Assembly (NCBI RefSeq): GCF_036971445.1
Contig: NC_091471.1
Coordinates: forward strand, 329,282,001-329,346,000
Direction of reading: 5' to 3'
DNA: 64,000 nt
Origin: Narcine bancroftii
Lineage: Eukaryota
Below, piece after piece: positions 3,001-61,862 of this stretch. The position numbers and the translations under genes were made by a program. The notes below the pieces were generated by a model. The model was not told where the DNA came from. It saw only the letters and a list, made by a program, of their open reading frames with translations, and made no database searches. How positions within the stretch are numbered: the stretch's first letter is position 1; each line of letters starts with the position of its first letter.

Positions 3001-6000
3001 AGAGATGGGGAAAGGTGCAGAGAGATGGGGAAAGGGGACAGAGAATTGGGAAAGGCGACAGAGAATTGGGGAAAGGGGGAGAGGGATGGGAAAGGAGAGC
3101 GAGAGATGTACAAAGGGGAGCGAGAGAATCAGAAAGGGGTAGAGAGAGGGGCAAACGGGGAGAGAGATGGGGAAAGGGGGATAGAGATGGGGAAAGAGGA
3201 GAGAGAGATGGGGAAATAGAGAGATGGGGAAAGGGAAGAGATTTGGGAAAAGGGGAGAAAATGGGGGAAATGGGAGAGAGATGGGGAAAGGGGGAGAGAG
3301 ATGGGAAAAGAGAGCGAGAGTTGTGGAAAGTGGGAGAGATGGGAAAAGGGGAAGGGAAATGGGGAAAGGGGGAGAAAGATGGGGAAAGGGGGCGAGAGAA
3401 AGAGAAAGGGGGTGAGAGAAGGGGAAAGGGAGAGAGATGGGGAAAGGGGAGAGAGATGGGGAAAGGGGAGAGAGATAGCGAAAGGGTAGAGAGATGGGGA
3501 AAGGGAGAGAGATGGGGAAAGTGGGAGAGAGATGGGGAAAAGAGAGCGAGAGTTGTGGAAAGTGGGAGAGATGGGAAAAGGGGAAGGGAAATGGGGAAAG
3601 GGGGAGAAAGATGGGGAAAGGGGTCGAGAGAAAGAGAAAGGGGGTGAGAGAAGTGGAAAGGGAGAGAGATGGGGAAAGAGGAGAGAAATGGGGAAAGGGG
3701 GAGCGATATGGAAAAGTGGGAGCGATATGGAGAAAGGGGGAGAGAGAAGGGGAAATGGAGAGAGATATGGGGAAAGGGGGACAGAGATAGGGAAATGGGG
3801 AGATAGATATTGGGAAATGGGGAAAGGTCGGGGAGAGATAGATGAAAAAGGGGGAAATGGTGAAAGGGGAAAGAATGGTGTAAGGATGGAGAGAGGGGAA
3901 AAGAGGAGAGAGAGATGAGAAAAGGGAAGAGATTTGGGAAAAGGGGAGAGAAATGGGGAAAGGGGAGCAAGAGATGCGGAAATGGGTATAGATAGCGGGG
4001 AAAGGGGAGAGAGATGGGAAAGGGGAGAGATATCGGGAAATGGGGAGAGAGATGGGGAAAGGAGGAGATAGATGGGGAAATGGGGAGAGAAATGGGGAAA
4101 GGAGAGAGAGATGGGGAAAGGGGGAGAGAAATGGGGAAATGGGGAGAGAGATGGGGAGAGAAGTGGTGAAGGGGAGAGATGAGAAAGGGAGAGAAAGGAG
4201 GGAGAGAGGTGGGGAAAGGGGGAGAGAGATGGGGAAAGGGGGAGAGAGATGGGGAAAGGGGGAGAGAGAAGGGGAAAGCTGGATAGAGATGGGGAAAGGG
4301 GGAGAGAGATGGGGAAAGTTGGAGAGAGATGGGGAAAGGGGAGAGATGGGGAAAGGGGGAGAGAGATGGGGAAATGGGGAGAGAGATGGGGAAATGGGGA
4401 GAGATATCGGAAAATGGGGGAGAGTTGGGGAAGGGTAGAGAAATGAAAAAGAGGAAGAGAAATGGTGAAAGGGGAAAGAATGGGAGAAGGAAGGAGAGAG
4501 ATGGGGAAAGAGGAGAGAGAGATGGAGAAAGCGAAGATATTTGGGAAAAGGGGAGACAGATGGGGAAAGGGGGAGAGAGATGGAGAAAGGGGAGGGAGAT
4601 GGGGAAAGGGAAAGAGAGAAGGTGAAGGGGAGAGATGAGAAAGGGAAAGCGGGAGAGTGGTGGGGAAAGGGGGAGAGAGATGGGGAAAGGGGGAGAGAGA
4701 TGGGGAAAGTTGGAGAGAGATGGGGAAAGGGGGAGAGAGAAGGGGAAAGCTGGATAGAGATGGGGAAAGGGGGAGAGAGATGGGGAAAGGTGCAGAGTGA
4801 TGGGGAAAGGGGGAGAGATGGGGAAATGAGGGGAGAGATGGGGAAAGGGGAAAGAGTTGGGGGAAGGGGGAGAAAGATGGGGAAAGGGGAAGAGAGATGG
4901 GGAAATGGGGAGAGAGATATCGGAAAATGGGGGAGAGTTGGGGAAGGGTAGAGAAATGAAAAAGAGGAAGAGAAATGGTGAAAGGGGAAAGAATGGGAGA
5001 AGGAAGGAGAGAGATGGGGAAAGAGGAGAGAGAGATGGAGAAAGCAAAGATATTTGGGAAAAGGGGAGACAGATGGGGAAAGGGGGAGAGAGATGGGGAA
5101 GGGGAGAGAGATGGGGAAGGGTGAGAGAGATGGGGAAAGGGGTAGAGAGATGGAGAAAGGGGAGAAAGAGTAGGAAAGGAGACAGAGTTGGGGAAAGAAG
5201 AGTGAGAGATGCAGAAAGGAGTAGAGAAAGGGGGAAGGGGGAGAGGGATGGGGAAAGGGGAGCAAGAGATGTACAAAGGGGAGCGTGAGAATCAGAAAGG
5301 GGTAGAGAGAGGGGGGAAAGGGGGAGAGATGGGGAAAGGGGAGAGAGATGGGGCAAGAGGAAAGGGAGGTGTGCAAAGGGAAGAGATTTGGGAAAAGGAG
5401 AGAGAAGGGGGAAAGGGGAGAGAGATGGGAAAAGGGGGAGAGAGATGGGAAAAGGTGAGCGAGAGGTGGAAAGAGGGAGTGGCGGAAAAAGGGGAAGAGA
5501 GATGGGAAAGGGAGAGTGAGATGGGGAAAGGGGATACAGATGGGGAAAGGGGGAGAGAGATGGGAAAGAGAGAGAGATGGTGAAGGCGAGAGAGATGAGA
5601 CAGGGGAGGACAAAGGGGAAAGGGGGAGAGAGATGGGGAAAGGGGAGGGAGATGGGGAAAGGGGGAGAGAGATGGCGAAATCGGAGAGAGATATCAGAAA
5701 ATGGGGGAGAGGTGGGAAGGGGAGAGATAGACGAAAAAGAGGAAGAGAAATGTTGAAAGGGGAAAGAATGGGGGAAGGAAGGAGAGAGATGGGAAAGAGG
5801 AGAGAGAGATGGGGAAAGGGAAATTTGGGAAAAGATGAGAGAGAAGGGGAAAGGGGGACAGAGCTGGGGAAGGGGAGAGAGATGGGGACAGGGGGAGAGA
5901 GATGGTGAAAGGGGGAGAGAGATGGGAAAGAGAGAGAGATGGTGAAGGGGAGAGAGATGAGTCAGGGGAAGACTAAGGGGAAAGGGGGAGAGAGAAGGGT

Positions 6001-9000
6001 AAAGGGGAGAGAGATGTGGAAAGGGGGAGAGAGATTGCGAAATGGGGAGAGAGATATCAGAAAATGGGGGAGAGGTGGGGAAGGGGTGAGACAGACGAAA
6101 AAGGGGAAGAGAAATGGAGAAAAGGGAAAGAATGGGGTAAGGAACGAGAGAGATGGGGAAAGAGGATAGAGAGAGATGGGGAAAGGGAAGAGATTTAGGA
6201 AAAGGGGAGAGAAAGGGGGAAAGGGGAGCGAGAGATGTACAAAGGAGAGCGAGAGAATCAGAAGGGGGTAGAGAGAGGGGACAGGGCAAGAGAGATGGGG
6301 AAAGGGGCTGAGAGATGGGAAAAGGGGTAGAGAGATGGGAAAGGGAGAGAGAAATAGTGAAGGAGAGAGATGAGAAAGGGAGAAAAAGGGGGAGAATGGT
6401 GGGGAAAGGGGTAGAGAGATGGGGAAAGGGGGAGAGAGATGGGGAAAGGGGGAGAGAGATGGGGAAAAGAGAGCGATAGTTGTGGAAAGTGGGAGAGATG
6501 GGAAAAGGGGAAGGGAAATGGGGAAAGGGGGAGAAAGATGGGGAAAGGGGGCGAGAGAAAGGGAAAGGGGGTGAGAGAAGGTAAAAGGGAGAGAGATGGG
6601 GAAAGGGGAGAGAGATGGGGAAAGGGGAGAGAGATGGGGAAAGGGGAGAGAGATGGGGAAAGGGGGAGAGATGGGGAAAGGGTGAGAGATGGGGAAAGGA
6701 GAGATATGGGAAATGGGGGGTTGAGAGATGGGGATAGGGGAGAGAGATGGGGAAAGGGGAGAGAGATGGGGAAAGGGAGAGATGGGGAAAGAGAGAGATG
6801 GGGAAAGGAAGAGAGATGGGTAAAGGAGAGATATGGGAAAAGGGGGGGAGAGAGATGGAGATAGGGGAGAGAGATGGGGAAAGGGGACAGAAATTGGGGA
6901 AAGGGGACAGAGAATTGGGGAAAGGGGGAGAGGGATGGGGAAAGGAGAGCGAGAGATGTACAAAGGGGAGCGAGAGAATCAGAAAGGGGTAGAGAGAGGG
7001 GCAAACGGGGAGAGAGATGGGGAAAGGGGATAGAGATGGGGAAAGAGGAGAGAGAGATGGGGAAATAGAGAGATGGGGAAAGGGAAGAGATTTTGGAAAA
7101 GGGAAGAAAAAGGGGGAAATGGGAGAGAGATGGGGAAAGGGGGATAGAGATGGGGAAAAGAGAGCGAGAGTTGTGGAAAGTGGGAGAGATGGAAAAAGGG
7201 GAAGGGAAATGGGGAAGGGAAATGGGGAAAGGGGGAAAAAGATGGGGAAAGGGGACGAGAGAAAGAAAAAGGGGGTGAGAGAAGTGGAAAGGGAGAGAGA
7301 TGGGGAAAGGGGAGAGAGATGGGGAAAGGGGAGAGAGATAGCGAAAGGATAGAGAGATGGGGAAAGGGGAGAGAGATGGTGAAAGGGGAGAGAAATGGGG
7401 AAAGGGGGAGCGATATGGGAAAAGTGGGAGCGATATGGAGAAAGGGGGAGAGAGAAGGGGAAATGGAGAGAGATATGGGGAAAGGGGGACAGAGAAAGGG
7501 AAATGGGGAGATAGATATCGGGAAATGGGGAAAGGACGGGGAGAGATATACGAAAAAGGGGGAAATGGTGAAAGGGGAAAGAATGGTGTAAGGATGGAGA
7601 GAGGGGCAAAGAGGAGAGAGAGATGAGAAAAGGGAAGAGATTTGGGAAAAGGGGAGAGAAATGGGGAAAGGGGAGCAAGGGATGCGGAAATGGGTATAGA
7701 TAGGGGGGAAAGGGGAGTAAGATGGAGAAAGGGGAGAGAGATGGGGAAAGGGGAGAGAGATGGGGAAAGGGGAGAGAGATGTGGAAAGGGGAGCGAGAGA
7801 TGTACAAAGGAGAGCGAGAGAATCAGAAGGGCGTAGAGAGAGGGGACAGGGCAAGAGAGATGGGGAAAGGGGCTGAGAGATGGGAAAAGGGGTAGAGAGA
7901 TGGGAAAGGGAGAGAGAAATGGTGAAGGGGAGAGATGGGAAAGGGAGAGAAAGGGGGAGAATGGTGGGGAATGGGGAAGAGAGATGGGGAAAGGGGGAGA
8001 GAGATGGGGAAAGGGGGAGAGAGATGGGGGGGAGAGGGGGGAGAAAGGAAGGGGAAAGCTGGGGGAAGGGGGAGAAGAAGGGGAAAGCTGGAGAGAGATG
8101 GGGAAAGGGGGAGAGAGATGGGGAAAGGTGGCGAGAGATGGGGAAAGGGGGAGAGATGGGGAAATGAGGGGAGAGATGGGGAAAGGGGAAAGAGTTGGGG
8201 GAAGGGGAGAGAGAAGGGGAAAGGGGGAGAGTGATGGGGAAATGGGGAGAGATATCGGAAAATGGGGGAGAGTTGGGGAAGGGTAGAGAAATGAAAAAGT
8301 GGAAGAGAAATGGTGAAAGGGGAAAGAATAGGAGAAGGAAGGAGAGAGATGGGGAAAGAGAAGAGAGAGATGGAGAAAGAAAAGATATTTGGGAAAAGGG
8401 GAGAGAGATGGGGAAGGGGAGAGAGATGGGGATAGGGGGAGAGAGATGGAGAAAGGGGAGAAAGAGTAGGAAAGGAGACAGAGTTGGGGAAAGAAGAGCG
8501 AGAGATGCAGAAAGGAGTAGAGAAAGGGGGAAGGAGGAGAGAGATGGGGAAAAGAGAGCGAGAGATGTACAAAGGGGAGCGTGAGAATCAGAAAGGGGTA
8601 GAGAGAGGGGGGAAAGGGGGAGAGATGGGGAAAGGGGAGAGAGATGGGGCAAGAGGAAAGAGAGGTGTGCAAAGGGAAGAGATTTGGGAAAAGAAGAGAG
8701 AAGGGGGAAAGGGGAGAGAGACAGGGAAAGGGGGAGAGAGGTGGGAAAAGGTGAGCGAGAGGTGGAAAGAGGGAGTGATGGAAAAAGGGGAAGAGAGATG
8801 GGGTAAGGGGGAGTGAGATGGGGAAAGGGGGATAGAGATGGGGAAAGGGGGAGAGAGATGGGAATGAGAGAGAGATTGTGAAGGCGAGAGAGATGAGACA
8901 GGGGAAGACAAAGGGGAAAGGGGGAGAGAGATGGGCAAAGGGGAGATGGGGAAAGGGGGAGAGAGAAGGCGAAATCGGGAGAGAGATATCAGAAAATGGA

Positions 9001-25423: not shown

Positions 25424-25571
25424 GGGGGCGTGGCAAGATGGCGTAGGGAACAGACGTGCCTTCCAGACCTCTCCTGACTCTGATTTATTGTTTTGTCTTT
25501 AAGTGCCTGTTAAAGCTCTTTTAAAAGTTTATAAATAATAAGAGGTGCTGGATCAGTGCCTATTGGTTTAT

Positions 25572-26966
25572 ATGCAAAAAAAAGGTAAAAGAAAACATCA
25601 ACAGACTGTTAAAAAACTACATTTTCCGAAATTGTCTGGGCCTGCTTGTTTATAAGAAGCCAGGACTCAGCGTAAAATGGATCCAGAAGAAGACGTACAG
25701 AATTCGGCATTGAAACTCTGTTTTATACCGATAAGGCTCTCTGAAGGTCGCATTCAGCAGCTTTCAGAACAAAGGGCTGGCCGGGTGCCAGTATTTCACA
25801 CAACGGCCACTGTGAGTGCTGTTACTGAGACTTTGAAAGTTGAATCAGCTGGGGCGCCACCAGCTGGAGAGTTAAAGAACTGTCATTCGACTGCTACAGT
25901 GGTGGCGCTGCAAAATGCATCTTCAATTACAACGGTTTTTCCAGACATCGATTCAGTGAAGATGATTAAAGAGATTTGGCTTAAAGATAATCCTGATCTT
26001 CAGTCTCCTGGCATTGCTGGGGGGACTTTGAGAGGGATTTTTATACGAAGTCAAACTGCTAGAAAAGATACTAAATTAAGGGAAGAGACAGAAGATTCCG
26101 TGGTCTCTAAGGAACAGCAAGACCGCATTATGCCTGAATCTACTTCTGTTGAAATGTTTGTTAAGGATCTTGAAGATAAGATGTATTCTGTATTGAGTCA
26201 CTTAGCTAATTTTGTGAACCCGTTTATTTCCAAGATTAATGCGATGGGGGAAGCCATTAATGGAGCTTTTAAGCTTGAAACCATTGAAAGATTTGAAATG
26301 TGAGATCAAGGTTTAGTCGATGCACAGGATCAACTGCAAGATGAAAATAGAATAATTGAAACATTGCAGATCCAAAATAAAAATTTAGCAAAAAAGGGTG
26401 ATTATTTGGAGAATCAATCTAGACGGAACAACGTGAAAATTGTTGGTTTGCCAGAAGGCATAGAAGGACCAGATCCAAGAAAATTTTTTACTGAATGGAT
26501 TCCACGAGTGTTAGGACAGGATAAATTCCCTGAAGGTTTAATACTGGAACGTGCTCATAGAGTTTTAAGAAGAAAATCTTTTTCAGGACAGAATCCAAGA
26601 CCTGTTCTGATCCGTTGTTTAAACTATTGTGACAGAGAGACAATTTTACGTACGGCTATTAGAAATGCCCAGCAAAATAGATCTCCTTTGATGGTTCAGA
26701 ATAATTCTGTTTTCTTCTATCAAGATTTGAGTCAAGAAATTATGTTTCAATGACGCGAATTTAATTCTGTGAAAGAACGGTTGTGGAAAAAAAGACATAA
26801 GGCAACATTCAGGTATTCTGCGGTACTGAAGATTTTTCAGGATGGAAATCAGCCAAAGTTCTTTGACAATCCTAAAGAGGTTATGGACTTTGCTCAGTCT
26901 CTATCAATCATGCAGTTTCAGGAACGATGTAGTCCTTTTAGGTCTCCAAAGAGAGTAGAGATGTAA
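25572..26966 (+). pseudogene. L1 ORF1 (coiled coil/RRM/CTD, transposase-22 family) with in-frame premature stops
   Basis: ORFs at 25677, 26364 and 26769 share one frame with ATG 25572. Motifs LENQSRRNNVKIVGLPEG, LERAHR, PRPVLIR and FYQDLS. Stops at ~25653 (TAA), 26301 and 26751 (TGA). Confidence 0.9.
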
Positions 26967-27414
26967 GGTGGGATCCAGATTTTTAAAAGAAATGGAAGCA
27001 ATGGTGACCGAAGTGGTAACGTTGATTTAAAAAAAATAAATCTTTTATCTTTTTTTTGAGAAGAGTTTAAATAGTTTAAATAATGATGATAGTTTAATGA
27101 AATGGGAGTTGGGAGAGGGAACTGGGTGGGCACTAGTTTCCAGAAGTCATCAGCTACCTGTGAGTTATCTCACACCCAATATTTTGGGGGAGTTACCGCT
27201 TTGTGCGGTTTAAACAGGAGGAGGTAGTCATGACCTCCGACCTGTTTTTTTTTCTTTTTAATTTTTGGGTTAAGAAGTGAAGGTTTTTAAAAATTTTTTT
27301 TTAATAAATAATTTTTTTTAACTCTTTTTGTTTTCTGATTGTAATTGAGAGGGAATTAGGAGGTTTTTTTTCTCTTTTTTGGGGGGGGGTTTCTCTTTTT
27401 TCTCTCTTTTTTAA

Positions 27415-27620
27415 GAGGATGATGTCACAGAAGATAATAAGTCAAAAATTGAGGATGTTGAATTAGATGAAGAGGAAGATGAGCGGAACAGTGATAAGAA
27501 GAAAAAGAAGAAAATCAAGTACAAATACATTGAGGGAGAAGAGTTTAATAAAATTAAGTTAATTTCGATAGAGAATTTTGAAGATGATATAAATGAAGAA
27601 TATGGAGAATTTTATGAGTT
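27415..27620 (+). pseudogene. HSP90AA1: Captured HSP90-alpha coding fragment (charged linker into middle domain) inside the L1 derivative
   Basis: Translation [67 protein letters not shown] aligns to the remembered HSP90AA1 sequence [59 protein letters not shown]. Confidence 0.85.
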
Positions 27621-27659
27621 TGAACTTTTTTTTCTTTTTTTATATAAGGGGAGGGGAAG

Positions 27660-27776
27660 GGAATAAAAAGTTTATCTGATTGTTTTTCCAAGGGATGTTT
27701 TTGTTCTCTTGATGAATTATAAAGGAAACTTGGTATTAATGGAAATTCTGTATTTATGTATTATTAATTATGATTT
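27660..27776 (+). pseudogene. Short L1 ORF2 C-terminal remnant
   Basis: [35 protein letters not shown] resembles GIKRIENCFSGNRLLSFEQMKDKYNITQDTVLAYYQL in ORF2 of the other L1 in this window (~60990-61100). Confidence 0.7.
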
Positions 27777-28147
27777 TTTGTATAACAGATATGTGGTTGA
27801 TATATGATTTTAATATTTGAACTTAGTTTTCAAGTGGATTTCATTTGTTAAATACATGTATTATGTTTGATTTAAATATATGTTTAAGGGTATTATTTTA
27901 GTATTGATTTTTTTTTGTTGTTAGTAATTTTTGTTGTTGTTAAGTTTTATCCTTTTTTTTTAAGTGGGGTTTTTTCTATTTTATTTACAACATTGTTAAT
28001 TAATTCCTCACTCTTTATTTTGAGGGGGGAGGGTTGGACTAATTTTAAATTAGACGATTAATGTTGTGTCATAATTATTGGGGGGGGTTAATTTGTGTAG
28101 TTTAATGATGTAGTATTCTAATTTTTATTATCTTATTTTTTATTATT

Positions 28148-28630
28148 TTTTTCTTTCTTTCTTTTCCAATCTTTTTATTATTATTATAATTTATAAACAC
28201 ATACAGTTCAAAGAGATATGAAAAATACATAGTAAATAATGAATTAATACAGAGATATTAAACAATAATATTGCAGAATAAAAATATATCATAAAAAAAT
28301 TTAGATCAGTTTAGAGTATGAACTATCTCTAAAAAAAGATATAAGTAATAAAAATATAAAAAAAAGAGAGAAAAAAAAACCCCAAAAAGGAAGAAAAAAC
28401 AAATCTGAATTAAAAACTTAAAAAAAAAACTTTTGGAAAGTTTAAAAATGATTGGGAAAGAGAACTCAACATTCATATTTCCAATGAAAATTGGAATAAA
28501 ATTCTGCGACTGGTAAACTCCTCTTCTCTATGTGCAAAACATTCACTGATACAGTTTAAAGTTGTTCATAGAGCTCATATGTCTAAAGATAAACTCCATT
28601 GCTTTTATTTTCATATCGATCCGATATGAT
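28148..28630 (-). mobile_element. Nested 5'-truncated, 5'-inverted L1 insertion
   Basis: A minus-strand L1 3' end (reverse complement AATAAAAAGATTGGAAAAGAAAG..., ~28148-28430) is joined to a plus-strand ORF2 piece at 28432-28628 (FKNDWERELNIHISNENWNKILRLVNSSSLCAKHSLIQFKVVHRAHMSKDKL). Confidence 0.7.
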
Positions 28631-28692
28631 TTCTTTAAATGTAATTTTTATTTTATTTATGTCATAAAATTTTAAATAAAGTTTAAAAAAAA

Positions 28693-30650
28693 GGGAAAGG
28701 GGAGAGAGATGGGGAAAGGGGGAGAGAGATGGGGAAAGCTGGAGAGAGATGGGGAAAGCTGGAGAGAGATGGGGAAAGCTGGAGAGAGATGGGGAAAGCT
28801 GGAGAGAGATGGGGAAAGGGAGAGAGATGGGGAAAGGGAGAGAGATGGGGAAAGGGAGAGAGATGGGGAAAGGGAGAGAGATGGGGAATGGGGAGAGAGA
28901 TGGGGAATGGGGAGAGAGATGGGGAAAGGGGAAAGAGTTGGGGAAAGGGGGAGAGAGATGGGGAAAGGGGGAGAGAGATGGGGAAAGGGGGAGAGAGATG
29001 GGGAAAGGAGAGCAAGAGATGTACAAAGGGGAGCAAGAGAATCAGAAAGGGGTAGAGAGAGGGGGGAAAGGGGAGAGAGAGATGTGCAAAGGGAAGAGAT
29101 TTGGGAAAAGGGGAGGGAAAGGGAGAAAGGGGAGAGAGATGGGAAAGGGGGAGCGAGAGGTGGAAAAGGGGAGAGAAGGGAAAAGGGGAGAGAAGGGAAA
29201 AGGGGAAGAGAGATGGGGAAAGGGGGAGAGAGATGGGGAAAGGGGGAGAGAGATGGGGAAAGGGGAGAGAGATGGGGAAAGGGGAGAGAGATGGGGAAAG
29301 GGGGAGAGAGATGGGGAAAGCTGGAGAGAGATGGGGAAAGGGGGAGAGAGATGGGGAAAGGGGGAGAGATGGGGAAATGGGGAGAGAGATGGGGAAAGGG
29401 GAAAGAGTTGGGGAAAGGGGAGAGAGATGGGGAAAGGGGAGAGAGATGGGGAAAGGGGAGAGAGATGGGGAAAGGGGAGAGAGATGGGGAAAGGGGAGAG
29501 AGAGATGAGAAAAGGGGACAGTGAAAATGGGGGAGAGAGAGGGAGGAAAGGGGAGAGAGGGGTGAAAGGGGAGAGAGATGGGGAAAGCTGGAGAGAGATG
29601 GGGAAAGGGGGAGAGAGATGGGGAAAGGGGGAGAGATGGGGAAAGGGAGAGAGATGGGGAAATGGGGAGAGAGATGGGGAAAGGGGAAAGAGTTGGGGAA
29701 AGGGGGAGAGAGATGGGGAAAGGGGGAGAGAGATGGGGAAAGGAGAGCGAGAGATGTACAAAGGGGAGCAAGAGAATCAGAAAGGGGTAGAGAGAAGGGG
29801 GAAAGGGGAGAGAGATGGGAAAATGGGGAGAGAGATGGGGAAAGGGGAAAGAGTTGGGGAAAGGGGGAGAGAAATGGGGAAAGGGGGAGAGAGATGGGGA
29901 AAGGGGGAGAGAGATGGGGAAAGGGGGAGAGAGATATCGGAAAATGGGGGAGAGAGATATCAGAAAATGGGGGAGAGGTGGGGAATGGGAGAGATAGACG
30001 AAAAAGGGGAAGAGTAATGGTGAAAGGGGAAAGAATGGGATGAGGAAGGAGAGAGATGGGGAAAGAGGAGAGAGAGTTGGGGAAAGGGAAGAAATTTGGG
30101 GAAAGGGGAGAGAGATGGGGAAAGGGGGAGAGAGATGGAGAAAGGAGAGCGAGATGTACAAAGGGGAGCGAGAGAATCAGAAAGGAGGAGAGAGATGGGG
30201 AAAGGGGGAGAGAGATGGGGAAAGAGAGATAGAGATGGGGAAAGGGGAGAGAGATGGGGAAAGGGCAGAGAGAGATGAGAAAAGGGGACAGTGAAAATGG
30301 GGGAGAGAGAGGGAGGAAAGGGGAGAGAGGGGTGAAAGGGGAGAGAGAGAGGGAGAGATAGGAAAAGGGGAGAGAGATGGCGAAAGGGGAGTGTTGGAGA
30401 AAGATGGGGAGAGATGGGGAAAGGAAAAAGGGACGAGATAGGGGAAATAGGAGAGAGAGGGAGACAGGGGGTGAGATAGGGGGTAAAGGGAGATAGAGTG
30501 GGAAGGGGGAGAGAGAGGGGGAATGGCGCAGAGAGAGAGAGGGGGAATGGGGCAGAGAGAGAGGTGGAATGGGGAGAGAGATGGCGAAAGAGGAGAGATG
30601 GGTAAAGGGCAGAGAGAGTTGAGGAAAGGGGGGAGGGAGAGAGAGAGTGG
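28693..30650 (+). repeat. Continuation and decaying edge of the GA-rich satellite
   Basis: Same units and cassettes as 1-25423, degenerating after ~30300. Confidence 0.95.
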
Positions 30651-46800: not shown

Positions 46801-46840
46801 GACCTACTTGTCTCGGTAATGCTGAGCTCCTCGTTTGCAG

Positions 46841-47569
46841 GGGCTTGTCAACACGGAGACCGGCTGGCTAGCTTCCCCCTCCCTGCCCGCGGGGTCCCAC
46901 CAGGCCGACCCTCTGCTGGAGCAGATTGCCAACATCGAGAGCTACCTGGCGCAGGCCCAGGCTGCGGGCAGGCGGGACGAAGCCCACACCCTGCAGGAGA
47001 ACCTGGGCCAGCTGCATGCTGAGCTGGAGGGCCGCCGGCGTGGAGAGGGAGACCCCCAGCCTGCCCGTGGTCCCCACACCGCTGGCTCCATCTGGGTGCA
47101 GGTCAGTGACAACGGCACCCACTACTCCCAGCGAGGCAAGCCCTCCGTGGAGGGTTCTCGCAACCTTGAGAATCCTGGCAACCCATTTGAGAAATATCTC
47201 GGTCACGGCAACCCCTTCGAAGAGGGTCCCGATCATGACAACTCCTTCAAGGATGGTCCTAGCAATCCCAAAGAGGGTCCCAGTCATGGCAACCCCTTCA
47301 AGAATGGTCCCGACGACCCCAAAGAAGGTCCCAGTCCTGGCAACCCCTTCGAAGAGGGTCCCAGACTTGGCAACCCCTTCGAGGAGGAGGAAGAGGAGGA
47401 GGGAGAGATCGAGGAGGAGCTCCTGCAGCAGCAGATTGACAACATTAAGGCCTACATCTTTGATGCTAAGCAGGCCAGTCGTCTAGACGAGGCAGCCAGC
47501 CTGATGGACCACCTCGGCGAGCTGCGCCGGGCTTTGGAACTCCAGAGGAGCAGGCGGAGGCCTCTCTAG
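46841..47569 (+). CDS. RBSN: Rabenosyn-5-like last coding exon (Rab4-binding helical hairpin, NPF repeats, Rab5-binding domain)
   Basis: DPLLEQIANIESYLAQAQAAGRRDEAHTLQENLGQL, five NPF motifs, IEEELLQQQIDNIKAYIFDAKQ, stop TAG at 47567-47569. The 11 exons sum to 1950 nt, i.e. 649 aa plus stop. Confidence 0.96.
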   Translation, partial: GLVNTETGWLASPSLPAGSHQADPLLEQIANIESYLAQAQAAGRRDEAHTLQENLGQLHAELEGRRRGEGDPQPARGPHTAGSIWVQVSDNGTHYSQRGKPSVEGSRNLENPGNPFEKYLGHGNPFEEGPDHDNSFKDGPSNPKEGPSHGNPFKNGPDDPKEGPSPGNPFEEGPRLGNPFEEEEEEEGEIEEELLQQQIDNIKAYIFDAKQASRLDEAASLMDHLGELRRALELQRSRRRPL

Positions 47570-58090: not shown

Positions 58091-61000
58091 ATGGCTACGC
58101 TGAACTATATGACTTTAAATATTAACGGACTACATAACCAAATTAAAAGGAAGAAACTGCTAAATTTACTGAAAAAAAAAAATTGATATAGCATTTGTGC
58201 AAGAAACACATTTAACTGAATTGGAGCACAAGAAATTAAAGAGAGATTGGGTAGAACATGTAACAGCAGCGTTATATAATTCAAAAGCAAGAGGAGTAGC
58301 TATATTAATTAGTAAAAATATGCCAATTAAAATAGAAGAGGAAATAATAGATCCAGCAGGGAGATATGTAAAGATAAAATGTCAGATATATTCGGAGTTT
58401 TGGAATCTACTCAATGTATATTCACCCAACGAAGAAGATCAATAGTTTATGCAAGGTATTTTTTTGAAGGTAGCAGATACGCAAGGGAACATATTAATAG
58501 GAGGGGATTTCAACCTGAATTTGGATTCAAATATGGACAAAACGTGGAAAAAAAATTAACAGAAAGAACAAAGTAACCAAATTTATAATTAAATCGATGG
58601 AAGAAATGCAACTTTTGGATATATGGAGGAAACAACACCCAAAGGAAAAGGAATATTCATATTACTCGGGTAGACATAAAACATACTCAAGAAAAGACCT
58701 ATTTTTGTTATCAGCTCGTATGCAAGATAGAGTAAGAAAAACAGAATATAAAGCTAGAATATTATCGGACCATTCACCCTTGATATTGACAATAGAGTTA
58801 GAGGACATTCCCTCCAAGAATGTATAGATGGAGATTAAACTCCATGCTACTTAAAAGGAAGGATTTTAGAGAATTCATTGAAAGACAAATAAAAATGTAT
58901 TTTGAAATAAATACGGAATCAGTGAAAGATAAATTTATACTATGGGATGCAATGAAAGCGTTCATTAGAGGGCAAATAATAAGTTATGTAACCAAGATGA
59001 AGAAGGACTACAATCAGGAAACAGAGCAGTTGGAAAGGGAAATAGTAAATATAGAAAATGAATTAGCAATGATGGAAGATACAATTAAAAGAAGAGAATT
59101 GGCAGATAAAAAAATAAAATAAGAAACACTACAAACATATAAGGTGGAGAAGAACATAATGAAGACAAAACAGAAATATTATGAACTAGGAGAAAAAACG
59201 CACAAAATTCTAGCATGGCAGCTTAAGACAGAACAAGCTAAGAAAATGGTATTGGCATCAAGGAAAAAAGACAAATCACATATAATCCAACGGAGATCAA
59301 GGAAAACTTTAGAGAATTCTATGAACAATTATACCAAACTGAAAACGAAGGGAAAGAAGGGAAAATAGATGAATTTTTAACTAAAATTGAACTACCAAAA
59401 TTACAAATAGAGGAACAAAATAAATTAACAGAACCATTTGAAATAGTAGAAATACAAGAGATAATAAAAAAAATTACCAAATAATAAAACACCAGGAGAG
59501 GATGGATTCCCAATAGAATTCTATAAAACATTTAAAGATTTATTAATTCCTCCCCTCCTGGAAGTAATCAACCAGATTGATGTAAAACAGCAATAATTAC
59601 AGTAATACTGAAGCAAGAGAAAGATCTGCTCGCAGCAGCGTCATATAGACCAATATCTTTACTTAACACAGATTATACGATAATAGCTAAGCTATTATTA
59701 GCAAACAGATTAGCAGAGTATGTACCTAAAATGGTAACTCTAGACCAAACTGGATTTATTAAAAAAAGACGCACAACAGACAATATTAGTAAATTTATTA
59801 ACTTAATTCATGCAGTAGAAGGGAGTAAAGCGCCAACAGTAGCAGTTGCTTTAGACGCAGAGAAGGCCTTTGACATAGTAGAATGGAATTATTTATTCAA
59901 AGTATTGCAAAAATTCAGTTTACCAGAGAAGTATATTAATTGGATTAAAGCATTATATAAGGGGCCATTGGCGAAAGTGACAGTAAATGGATATATATCA
60001 AAGCAATTTAACTTAAGCAGGTCAACACGGCAGGGATGCCCACTATCACCCTTATTGTTCGCGATAGCTATAGAACCACTAGCAGAATTGATAAGAACAG
60101 AAAATAATATAAAAGGGATAAAAATAAAAGACAAGGAATATAAAATCAGTTTATTTGCGGATGATGTTATAGTATACTTAACAGAACCAGAACTATCAAT
60201 AAAAGAATTATATAAGAAATTGAAGGAATATAGAGAAGTGTTGGGTTACAAGATTAACGTAAATAAAAGTGAAGCAATGCGAATGAATAATGCGGATTTC
60301 TCAAAATTTAAGAAGGAATCACCATTCAGATGCAAATGCAAGCAATAAGATACCTAGGTATACAAATAAATAAAAATCTCGGCCATCTATATAAACTAAA
60401 TAATTATCCACTAATGAAAAAATTACAGATGATTTAGAGCATTGGAAAGATTTACCATTAACACTAATAGGAAGGATAAACTGTAATAAAATGAACATTT
60501 TCTCAAGGATATTATACCTATTTCAGGCATTGCCAATACACTTGACAGAGAAATTCTTCAAGGAGTTAAAGAAAATACTAAGGAAATTTTTATGGAAAGG
60601 GGGGAAACTGAGGATAGCACTAGATAAATTAACAGAATGGTATAAACAAGGAGGCTTACAACTGCCAAACTTAAAAAATTATTATAGAGCCACACAATTA
60701 AGATACCTATCAGATTTTTATCAAACAAGGGAAAAGCCAGATTGGACTAGATTAGAATTAGATAAAATAGGGGAAAAGATACCTGAACACATATTATATA
60801 AATGGGACGAAAAATTGATACAACGTAGGAGTTCTCCAGTATTACATCATCTACTCAATATTTGGAAAAAGATTCATGTAGAAAGGAATAAAACAAATTA
60901 CCAATTACCAAAACTAATATTGACGCAAAATAAGTTACTCCCATTTACAATAGATAACCTTTCCTTTAGAGAATGGGAGAAAAAAGGGATCAAAAGAATA

Positions 61001-61862
61001 GAAAATTGTTTTTCAGGAAATAGATTATTATCCTTTGAACAAATGAAAGATAAATACAATATAACTCAAGATACAGTGCTGGCATATTACCAATTGAGAT
61101 CCTACTTGAAGGACAAATTAGGAAGCAGTCTGAGGTTACCAGAGGGAAATAACTTTGAATATGTGATTACAGATACAATAATAATCAAAAGATTTATAAC
61201 AAATATGTATATTAAACTGCAAGAAAAGGAGAATGAGGAAACAAATGGTAAAGCTAAACAAAAATGGGAACAAGATTTAAATATAAAGATAAAAAAGGAA
61301 ACATGGGAGAAGTTATGTTCTGGAACGATGAGAAATACAATAAATACGAGGTTACGTATGATACAATATAACTGGATACACAGGCTATACATTACACCTC
61401 AAAAGTTAAATAAATGGGACCCAACAGTATCTGACAGATGTTTTCGATGTAAAAACGAAATGGGAACAACAATTCATGCAATCTGGACATGTGAGAAAGT
61501 AGAAAAATTTTGGGAAGATCTAAACCAAATAATAAATAAAATTACAGAAAACAATATACCAAAAAATCCAGAGATCTTCCTCCTAAGTAACATAAAAAAC
61601 AAAGAATTTGGAATTGATTTGGATGGTGCACAAAAAAGATTTGTTAAGATAGCTCTAGCCGTAGCAAAAAAAATGTATTATGTCAACCTGGAAATTGGAA
61701 GATAATTTGAAAATACAACAATGGTATATAGAAATGAATAAATGTATTCCATTAGAAAAAATAACATATAGTTTAAGAAATAATATTGAAATATTTGAAC
61801 AAATATGGGAGCCTTACATGAAACACAATAGAGAAAACCTACTGGGGACATTCACTACCTAA
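58091..61862 (+). pseudogene. L1 ORF2 (endonuclease plus reverse transcriptase), broken by several frameshifts and stops
   Basis: MATLNYMTLNINGL, QETHL, SDHSP, DQTGF, LDAEKAFD, RQGCPLSP, LFADD, CFRC...HAIWTC. Confidence 0.95.

Follow-up and report, generated by a model that had tools for sequence, protein, structure and literature searches.

A probable ORF1-only L1 family with an HSP90AA1 exon fragment in its spacer in the genome of Narcine bancroftii

The half-L1 elements of mammals, termed HAL1, were reportedly described by Smit in 1999 and by Bao and Jurka in 2010. Captured fragments of host genes are known from the telomeric long interspersed elements (LINEs) of Drosophila, where TART carries a piece of nxf2 and elements of Zaprionus and D. 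auraria carry pieces of aub or piwi, according to passages of PMC13534243. HAL1 itself is presented, in the portions of the two papers on which we draw, as a non-autonomous mammalian L1 derivative that encodes open reading frame 1 (ORF1) alone and that arose from a complete L1 (PMC5753468, PMC13756887). Chimeric LINE retrotranscripts are also on record, either as U6/L1 and messenger RNA (mRNA)/L1 chimeras (10.1101/2025.02.02.635956, in part) or as tripartite chimeras made by double template jumps (PMC2104539, in part). In this article, we will focus on an element at positions 25424-28692 of a window, that is, the whole stretch of 64,000 nucleotides that was analysed (contig NC_091471.1, positions 329,282,001 to 329,346,000) in the 3.3-Gb genome of the vertebrate Narcine bancroftii. 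We hold with good confidence that this element is a defunct copy belonging to a young, ORF1-only family of HAL1-type L1s, and that the family carries a piece of the host gene HSP90AA1 in its spacer.

The family resembles HAL1, as the consulted parts of both sources depict it, in that it encodes ORF1 only, arose from a complete L1 and is mobile as a unit. Unlike HAL1, which those parts treat in mammals only, it stems from a fish-type L1 residing in the same genome, it is young (median divergence 1.6%), and it possesses a host coding fragment as well as a sub-family with an exchanged head. With the gene-capturing LINEs of Drosophila, as far as they are covered in the passages at hand, it shares the absence of long terminal repeats, the frequent lack of ORF2 and a fragment of 140-235 bp, present in all copies, of a host gene linked to PIWI-interacting RNAs (piRNAs). 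It differs from them in belonging to the L1 clade, in being dispersed, in its vertebrate host and in having made one capture only, and also in its source, which is a general chaperone with a very abundant mRNA and not a dedicated pathway gene; its identity to that source is 82%, and the decay lies on the side of the element. As in chimeric retrotranscripts, a cellular RNA fragment is fused directly to LINE sequence within one insertion, but those chimeras are individual insertions in the excerpts cited, whereas the internal chimera described here founded about a thousand copies. A literature search, outside of which Repbase and Dfam lay, turned up neither a report on the family itself nor a vertebrate case in which an L1-derived family has amplified a piece of host coding sequence.

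Identity and anatomy of the family

The majority sequence of 18 full copies is 2,787 bp long and contains one long frame, ORF1, and no ORF2. These copies diverge from it by 1.2-3.0%, and the median of 1.6% was obtained from 84 copies (88 loci, minus one duplicate and three short or foreign sequences). The first-pass annotation, made from the letters of the stretch, had taken the element for a chimeric, non-autonomous, ORF1-only relative of HAL1 and had supposed that it could be a multicopy mobile family, recognizable by copies sharing both junctions of the HSP90 piece. Both ideas hold. The HAL1 features that could be tested are present, namely L1 5' and 3' ends in three blocks collinear with a complete L1, and many copies, scattered over the genome, that have poly(A) as well as target-site duplications. 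An exact 28-mer over the 5' junction has 871 matches in the genome, against 0 for a control pattern, and a looser junction pattern has 921. A 501-bp query across both junctions yielded 1332 candidates, of which 40 were scored and all 40 span it; among these, the 39 matches other than the window (39/39) span both junctions at 93-97% identity. Because the 28-mer is kept in only 22 of 28 loci found by a separate query, we infer a total family size of about 1,100 copies. The copies were chosen by their likeness to the window, so that the number of older ones is underestimated; one of these (L124, 89.8% identity) also has the HSP90 piece, as have all family copies seen, and one narrow genome pattern for a piece-less form, used without a positive control, gave 0 matches.

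Longer sequences were fetched for 19 of 30 loci, picked as looking complete. The start proposed earlier, at 25424, agrees with these, as 17 of the 19 begin at 25424-25425. A 3' end could be called in 17 of the 19, and target-site duplications of 10-21 bp, with at most 2 mismatches, were called in 15 of 17 copies. The family is a young HAL1-type retrotransposon with an amplified host exon fragment, and this fragment is most likely a passenger.

The origin of this fragment can be followed at both the protein and the DNA level. The 83-residue frame at 27415-27663 matches HSP90-alpha in PDB with an E-value of 2.8e-11, ahead of HSP90-beta (E 1.2e-9), and the Pfam HSP90 match of the same frame has an E-value of 1.7e-4, below the curated cut-off. 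Intron-containing HSP90 genes are found in the genome on contigs C5, C15 and others, and the one on C5 (locus L042) has the alpha-type KKKKKKIK and NEEYGEFY. The window piece matches an exon of this host HSP90AA1 gene at 81% over 202 bp (E 1e-50, DUST off), and the family majority matches it at 172/210 nt, with 52 of 70 residues identical; over the last 120 nt of the piece, the family agrees with the alpha gene at 96 positions and with the beta paralog at 75. The piece and the host exon are collinear across 70 codons, without any indel, which rules out a low-complexity artefact, and the piece lies wholly inside this one exon. The segment 27413-27624 thus derives from HSP90AA1, as the first-pass annotation had proposed, and its source is a single exon of the host gene; the limits given there (27415-27620) have to be moved slightly outwards. 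The stop-free run noted for 27415-27663 is indeed open in the window copy, but this is due to a 2-bp deletion there, and the family continues EFYKSL.

To place the piece within its carrier, we compared the family with a parent-type locus (L155), a 6.4-kb L1 with endonuclease and RVT_1 domains. The family aligns to it in three collinear blocks: 1-1992, comprising the 5' untranslated region (UTR), ORF1 and the spacer, at 79%; 2220-2412, which is ORF2 behind the reverse transcriptase (RT) domain, at 76%; and 2411-2786, which holds the last ORF2 codons and the 3' UTR, at 82%. In the window, the features are as follows.

25424..25565, + strand: L1 5' UTR and family start; 17 of 19 copies begin there, and it aligns with the start of the parent L155.
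25563..26966, + strand: ORF1, about 466-469 residues in the family majority; TGA at 26301 and 26751 in the window copy.
26967..27412, + strand: inter-ORF spacer from the parent L1, with a T-rich tract at its end; window 25424-27412 equals parent 717-2677 at 78%.
27413..27624, + strand: captured HSP90AA1 piece from one exon (charged linker and start of the middle domain), in sense, 214 bp in the family; DNA and protein matches.
27625..27637, + strand: remainder of the T-tract of the spacer, and joint of the first ORF2 deletion, which removed about 2.95 kb (spacer end, endonuclease, reverse transcriptase).
27638..27830, + strand: ORF2 relic from behind the RT domain, with stops, about 190 bp; parent 5632-5813, 76%, E 6e-36.
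27829..28152, + strand: joint of the second deletion, which removed about 910 bp, with the final ~48 bp of ORF2 and a 3' UTR rich in T; parent 6725-7060, 80%.
28150..28430, - strand: nested insertion, part 1, a 3' UTR with its tail from a different, autonomous L1 family; 96.5-97.5% to 9/9 loci, 2059 candidates.
28429..28628, + strand: nested insertion, part 2, an inverted ORF2 piece of the same family as part 1; 95.5-98.5% in 5/9 loci, in the orientation opposite to part 1.
28629..28692, + strand: end of the family 3' UTR, AATAAA and short poly(A), common to other copies; parent 7054-7118, 89%.

The same T-rich tract as in the family precedes ORF2 in all of the parent-type loci shown (20/20), none of which matches the HSP90 exon. 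Since the family aligns to its parent in three blocks, and since the old copy L124 retains the parent tract sequence both before and after the piece, it follows that the HSP90 piece entered within the T-run of the spacer and that two separate deletions, one of about 2.95 kb and one of about 0.91 kb, removed ORF2. This modifies the earlier picture of an HSP90 segment standing in place of ORF2: ORF2 is indeed lost, but the piece lies inside the T-run, and about 25 bp of spacer remains 3' of it. The ORF2 remnant of about 115 bp that had been reported is real but longer, at about 190 bp plus the last 48 bp or so of ORF2, and the alignment to L155 excludes that it is merely the nested insertion. 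As for the 3' UTR and poly(A), they belong to the family as had been thought, with the exception of 28150-28628. This nested stretch is absent from 29/29 other copies and is about 97% identical to copies of a second young autonomous L1 family, its target having been the T-rich 3' UTR. In intact copies of the source family, its two parts lie about 500 bp apart with part 2 upstream, and about 500 bp is missing between them here, a layout which we take to be a 5' inversion by twin priming.

The element sits inside a purine-rich tandem array, of 27 kb, which occupies 3-25422 and 28693-30635 of the window, with a 20-bp unit and a higher-order period of 213, and into which the element was inserted. 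Four contig sets (from RNA or low-coverage DNA, giving no strand and no level) cover the element, and the HSP90 piece is found in 3 of the 4, 27362-27417 being skipped as a repeat. Sequencing runs of two other organisms hold 0.44 and 0.31 of the words sampled from 26900-28100, so that the family may predate a species split. Elsewhere in the window, on the + strand, an exon at 46826-47569 encodes a Rabenosyn Rab-binding domain (Pfam Rbsn, E 3.5e-22), and the window probably holds the RBSN gene, to judge from this predicted domain; a fragment of another LINE ORF2 lies at 59581-61705 on the same strand (RVT_1, E 1.2e-36, with a weak zf-RVT match).

Capture of the piece and spread of the family

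With its reverse transcriptase missing and the hallmarks of L1-type insertion present, the family would be mobilised in trans by the ORF2 protein of parent-type L1s, aided by its own ORF1 protein; its spread probably depends on reverse transcriptase borrowed from complete L1s. Concerning the entry of the HSP90 piece, the account towards which we lean is that the RT jumped from the U-rich spacer to a fragment of HSP90AA1 mRNA, which is abundant, copied it and then resumed on the U-run that it had left. The A-rich linker part of the mRNA, just upstream of the captured region, is complementary to the U/C tract, and the foreign piece, in sense orientation, sits between two portions of a single LINE and has the T-run of the spacer at either end. 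Two template jumps inside the U-run would be the simplest path for such a capture, and the template switching supposed in the first-pass annotation is plausible.

HSP90AA1 mRNA often serves as a template in this genome: six one-off fragments of it were found elsewhere (L045, L046, L048, L049, L056 and L057), one spliced and one replacing a few bases of another repeat. They are 130-550 bp long and 89-99% identical, and they come from the 3' part of the gene. Four of the six end within a few bases of the same mRNA position. L049 is the spliced one, its intron being removed, and L045 replaces 8 bp inside another repeat, of which the empty form is present in three loci.

The family also recombines at the RNA level. 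A sub-family of about 3.7 kb (L120-L122 and L125-L154, for example C1:82949800-82957800) has the 5' UTR and ORF1 of the parent L1 and 640 bp of the ORF2 endonuclease region, joined to the 3' half of the family. This joint is at one exact site, family position ~1327, in 29 of the 30 loci that an endonuclease query retrieved, and it has 136 pattern matches in comparison with 684 for the plain form. One further locus (L123) has a second, different joint. Among parent-type copies, L164, L168 and L161 have large internal ORF2 deletions with other break points, the ORF2 block of L164 overlapping the relic of the family; these are possible independent steps towards ORF1-only elements.

Some observations do not sit easily with the capture of a passenger by template jumping. 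The piece lies within one exon, which is compatible with an origin at the DNA level or by break repair, no microhomology was seen at its joints, and its fixation in the family would also be expected from a benefit. It is conceivable, though we think it unlikely, that a master copy broke in its T-run and was repaired with HSP90AA1 cDNA or with the genomic exon: the T-run on both sides fits a short duplication, the piece contains no exon joint, and the tail-less one-off HSP90AA1 fragments do sit in other repeats. However, a DNA-level patch has to be reconciled with the sense orientation of the piece inside a retrotransposed RNA, with the further recombination of the family at the RNA level (136 copies with a parent L1 head at one exact site), and with the fact that double template jumps are described for LINEs, at least in the sections of PMC2104539 we cite.

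Coding, splicing and counter-defence

ORF1 is of L1 type, as had been stated, since the ORF1 of a sister copy (L073) matches human L1 ORF1p with an E-value of 7.8e-5; what had been missed is that the window copy is broken by its two premature TGA codons. Pfam gave no match for this ORF1. Over its 229 C-terminal codons, the ratio of non-synonymous to synonymous substitution rates (dN/dS) is 0.09 against the parent majority of 13 loci, with a synonymous count reached by 0 of 2000 shuffles. Most of this constraint signal is on the branch leading to the parent. For an ORF1 kept functional by the family itself, the figures are less favourable: since the split from L124, the family branch has 4 synonymous and 4 replacement changes in the C-terminal half and 6 and 13, respectively, in the N-terminal half, and of 18 full-length copies, 1 has a long frame that extends to the family stop. 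There is a weak indication of selection on ORF1 following the HSP90 capture.

The HSP90 frame itself is under no selection. Its raw dN/dS of 0.23 against the host could be read as selection, a reading rejected by 5000 spectrum-matched shuffles, from which 13.2+-1.9 synonymous changes are expected, the piece itself having 14.5 (P 0.27). In the piece, C to T changes affect 8 of 10 synonymous C and 11 of 13 non-synonymous C. It would take a great deal to make the piece a spliced or translated exon giving an ORF1-HSP90 product or an HSP90-like acidic peptide, which we regard as very improbable. It is true that the majority has no indel relative to the host over 70 codons and no stop, that a pyrimidine tract plus an AG precedes it, and that the frame is open in 59/84 copies. 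But it is broken in the other 25/84, an open frame is expected by chance in 54% of the shuffles, the piece has no synonymous excess over them, conserved W, P, T and L residues are lost from the piece, the frame at 27415-27663 has no ATG, and the old copy L124 carries stops. Splicing at the AG at 27414-27415, which the first-pass annotation had suggested, is not supported either, because its use should have left spliced retrocopies, and genome patterns with purine-type bases at the two tract positions tested found 0 of them, as against 921 with pyrimidines. The AG is host HSP90 sequence and the tract is the normal spacer of the parent. The HSP90 piece is likely a non-coding passenger.

The Drosophila precedent raises another possibility, akin to the small-RNA idea of the first-pass annotation and to what has been proposed for TART and nxf2, namely that antisense piRNAs from the piece would cleave the HSP90AA1 transcript and impair the loading of PIWI proteins in the germline, and that this would help the family to spread now or would have done so earlier. 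By this analogy, a vertebrate L1 derivative would have captured part of HSP90AA1 as a weapon against the piRNA system, and the weapon would have driven its spread and have since been blunted by a C-to-T mutator acting on the sense strand of the lineage. We consider the first of these proposals improbable, and the second, fuller one just as doubtful. They draw on a captured fragment of the same size (140-235 bp) in ORF2-less carriers (PMC13534243, in the passages used), on the part that Hsp90 takes in piRNA loading (PMC3683924, likewise in part), and on the presence of the piece in all copies seen; moreover, 12 of 194 windows of 21 nt have at most one mismatch to the host. However, the same passages of PMC13534243 place targeting at an identity of about 90%, lost near 80%, with almost no host-gene piRNAs at 79-82% in gene-capturing Drosophila LINEs. 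At 172/210 nt, the piece falls within that low range and short of the identity needed for targeting. When windows of 26 nt are considered, 0 of 189 have at most one mismatch, and the longest identical run is 21 nt. Furthermore, the divergence is on the side of the element, as the host equals human HSP90-alpha at the changed sites, which is the opposite of what escape by the host would give. Finally, because HSP90AA1 mRNA was also captured as one-off fragments, its abundance explains the choice of gene.

One-sided C-to-T wear and its meaning

From the host exon to the family majority, C was changed to T at 19 of 24 sites and G to A at 4 of 51 (p 9e-10), and the direction of change is fixed at replacement sites, where host residues equal those of human HSP90-alpha. 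The old copy L124 has 13 of 24 C to T changes. The ORF2 relic is worn in the same manner (C to T 10/15, G to A 4/31, p 4e-4, with one parent copy standing in for the ancestor). As a control, the six one-off HSP90AA1 retro-fragments have C to T at 5/251 and G to A at 9/282. CpG decay was rejected as a source, 0 of the 23 listed C contexts being CpG, and no APOBEC-like context was seen at the changed C.

This bias appears in the inherited, not the private, mutations of the family. In the 18 full copies, private changes are symmetric (65/341 C sites, 99/599 G sites, p 0.37) and shared ones are not (48/341 C, 32/599 G, p 8e-6). In the 84 copies, counted with CpG and homopolymers masked, changes present in at least three copies affect 15/82 C and 10/232 G (p 2e-4), singletons affect 22/82 C and 84/232 G (p 0.14), and doubletons 16/82 C and 36/232 G (p 0.39).

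We judge it likely that the loss of C reflects a mutational bias of the copying lineage and not selection for a C-poor RNA. According to our reading, the bias acts during replication of the lineage and is hidden elsewhere by coding constraint and by an equilibrium that is already C-poor. Several points count against it: the shared changes are numbers of sites and not of independent events, the relic comparison rests on its single parent copy, ORF1 has no net bias on the family branch (8 C to T and 8 G to A), and its four-fold sites compared with the parent have 7 T to C and 4 C to T. Selection for a C-poor, U-rich RNA in the untranslated part might account for the loss instead, although we give it a minor share of our belief. 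It would fit the symmetry of private mutations, the T-rich spacers and 3' UTRs that are usual in fish L1 (PMC5381506, in part) and the argument, made in excerpts of PMC9099904 and PMC7140322, that selection shapes the base composition of non-LTR (non-long-terminal-repeat) elements. But such selection would have had to act on 19 distinct sites within a foreign piece of 214 bp and, once more, in the ORF2 relic, without context preference, and C is scarce also at ORF1 four-fold sites in both lineages (10-13 of 112).

For a mutational bias, the candidate sources would be a C-to-U change in the RNA, misreading of C by the RT, or deamination of the strand that does not serve as template in transcribed master copies, since deamination of first-strand cDNA gives G to A on the sense strand (PMC9099904, in the part cited). 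The same source states, in that part, that mutation patterns, as measured to date, do not account for the strand bias in the composition of L1, and the underlying composition study excluded mutations shared between copies, as its quoted sections have it (PMC7140322).

An L1-derived family has thus multiplied a piece of host coding sequence roughly a thousandfold. In practice, its copies yield many false HSP90 matches in annotation and read mapping, and they offer a vertebrate test of the counter-defence idea drawn from gene capture in Drosophila. The main value of the family, however, is that its HSP90 piece is a natural reporter, with a known ancestor, for strand-specific mutation in the descent of L1. 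The restriction of the asymmetry to inherited changes makes RNA editing, RT error and transcription-linked deamination testable as its sources.

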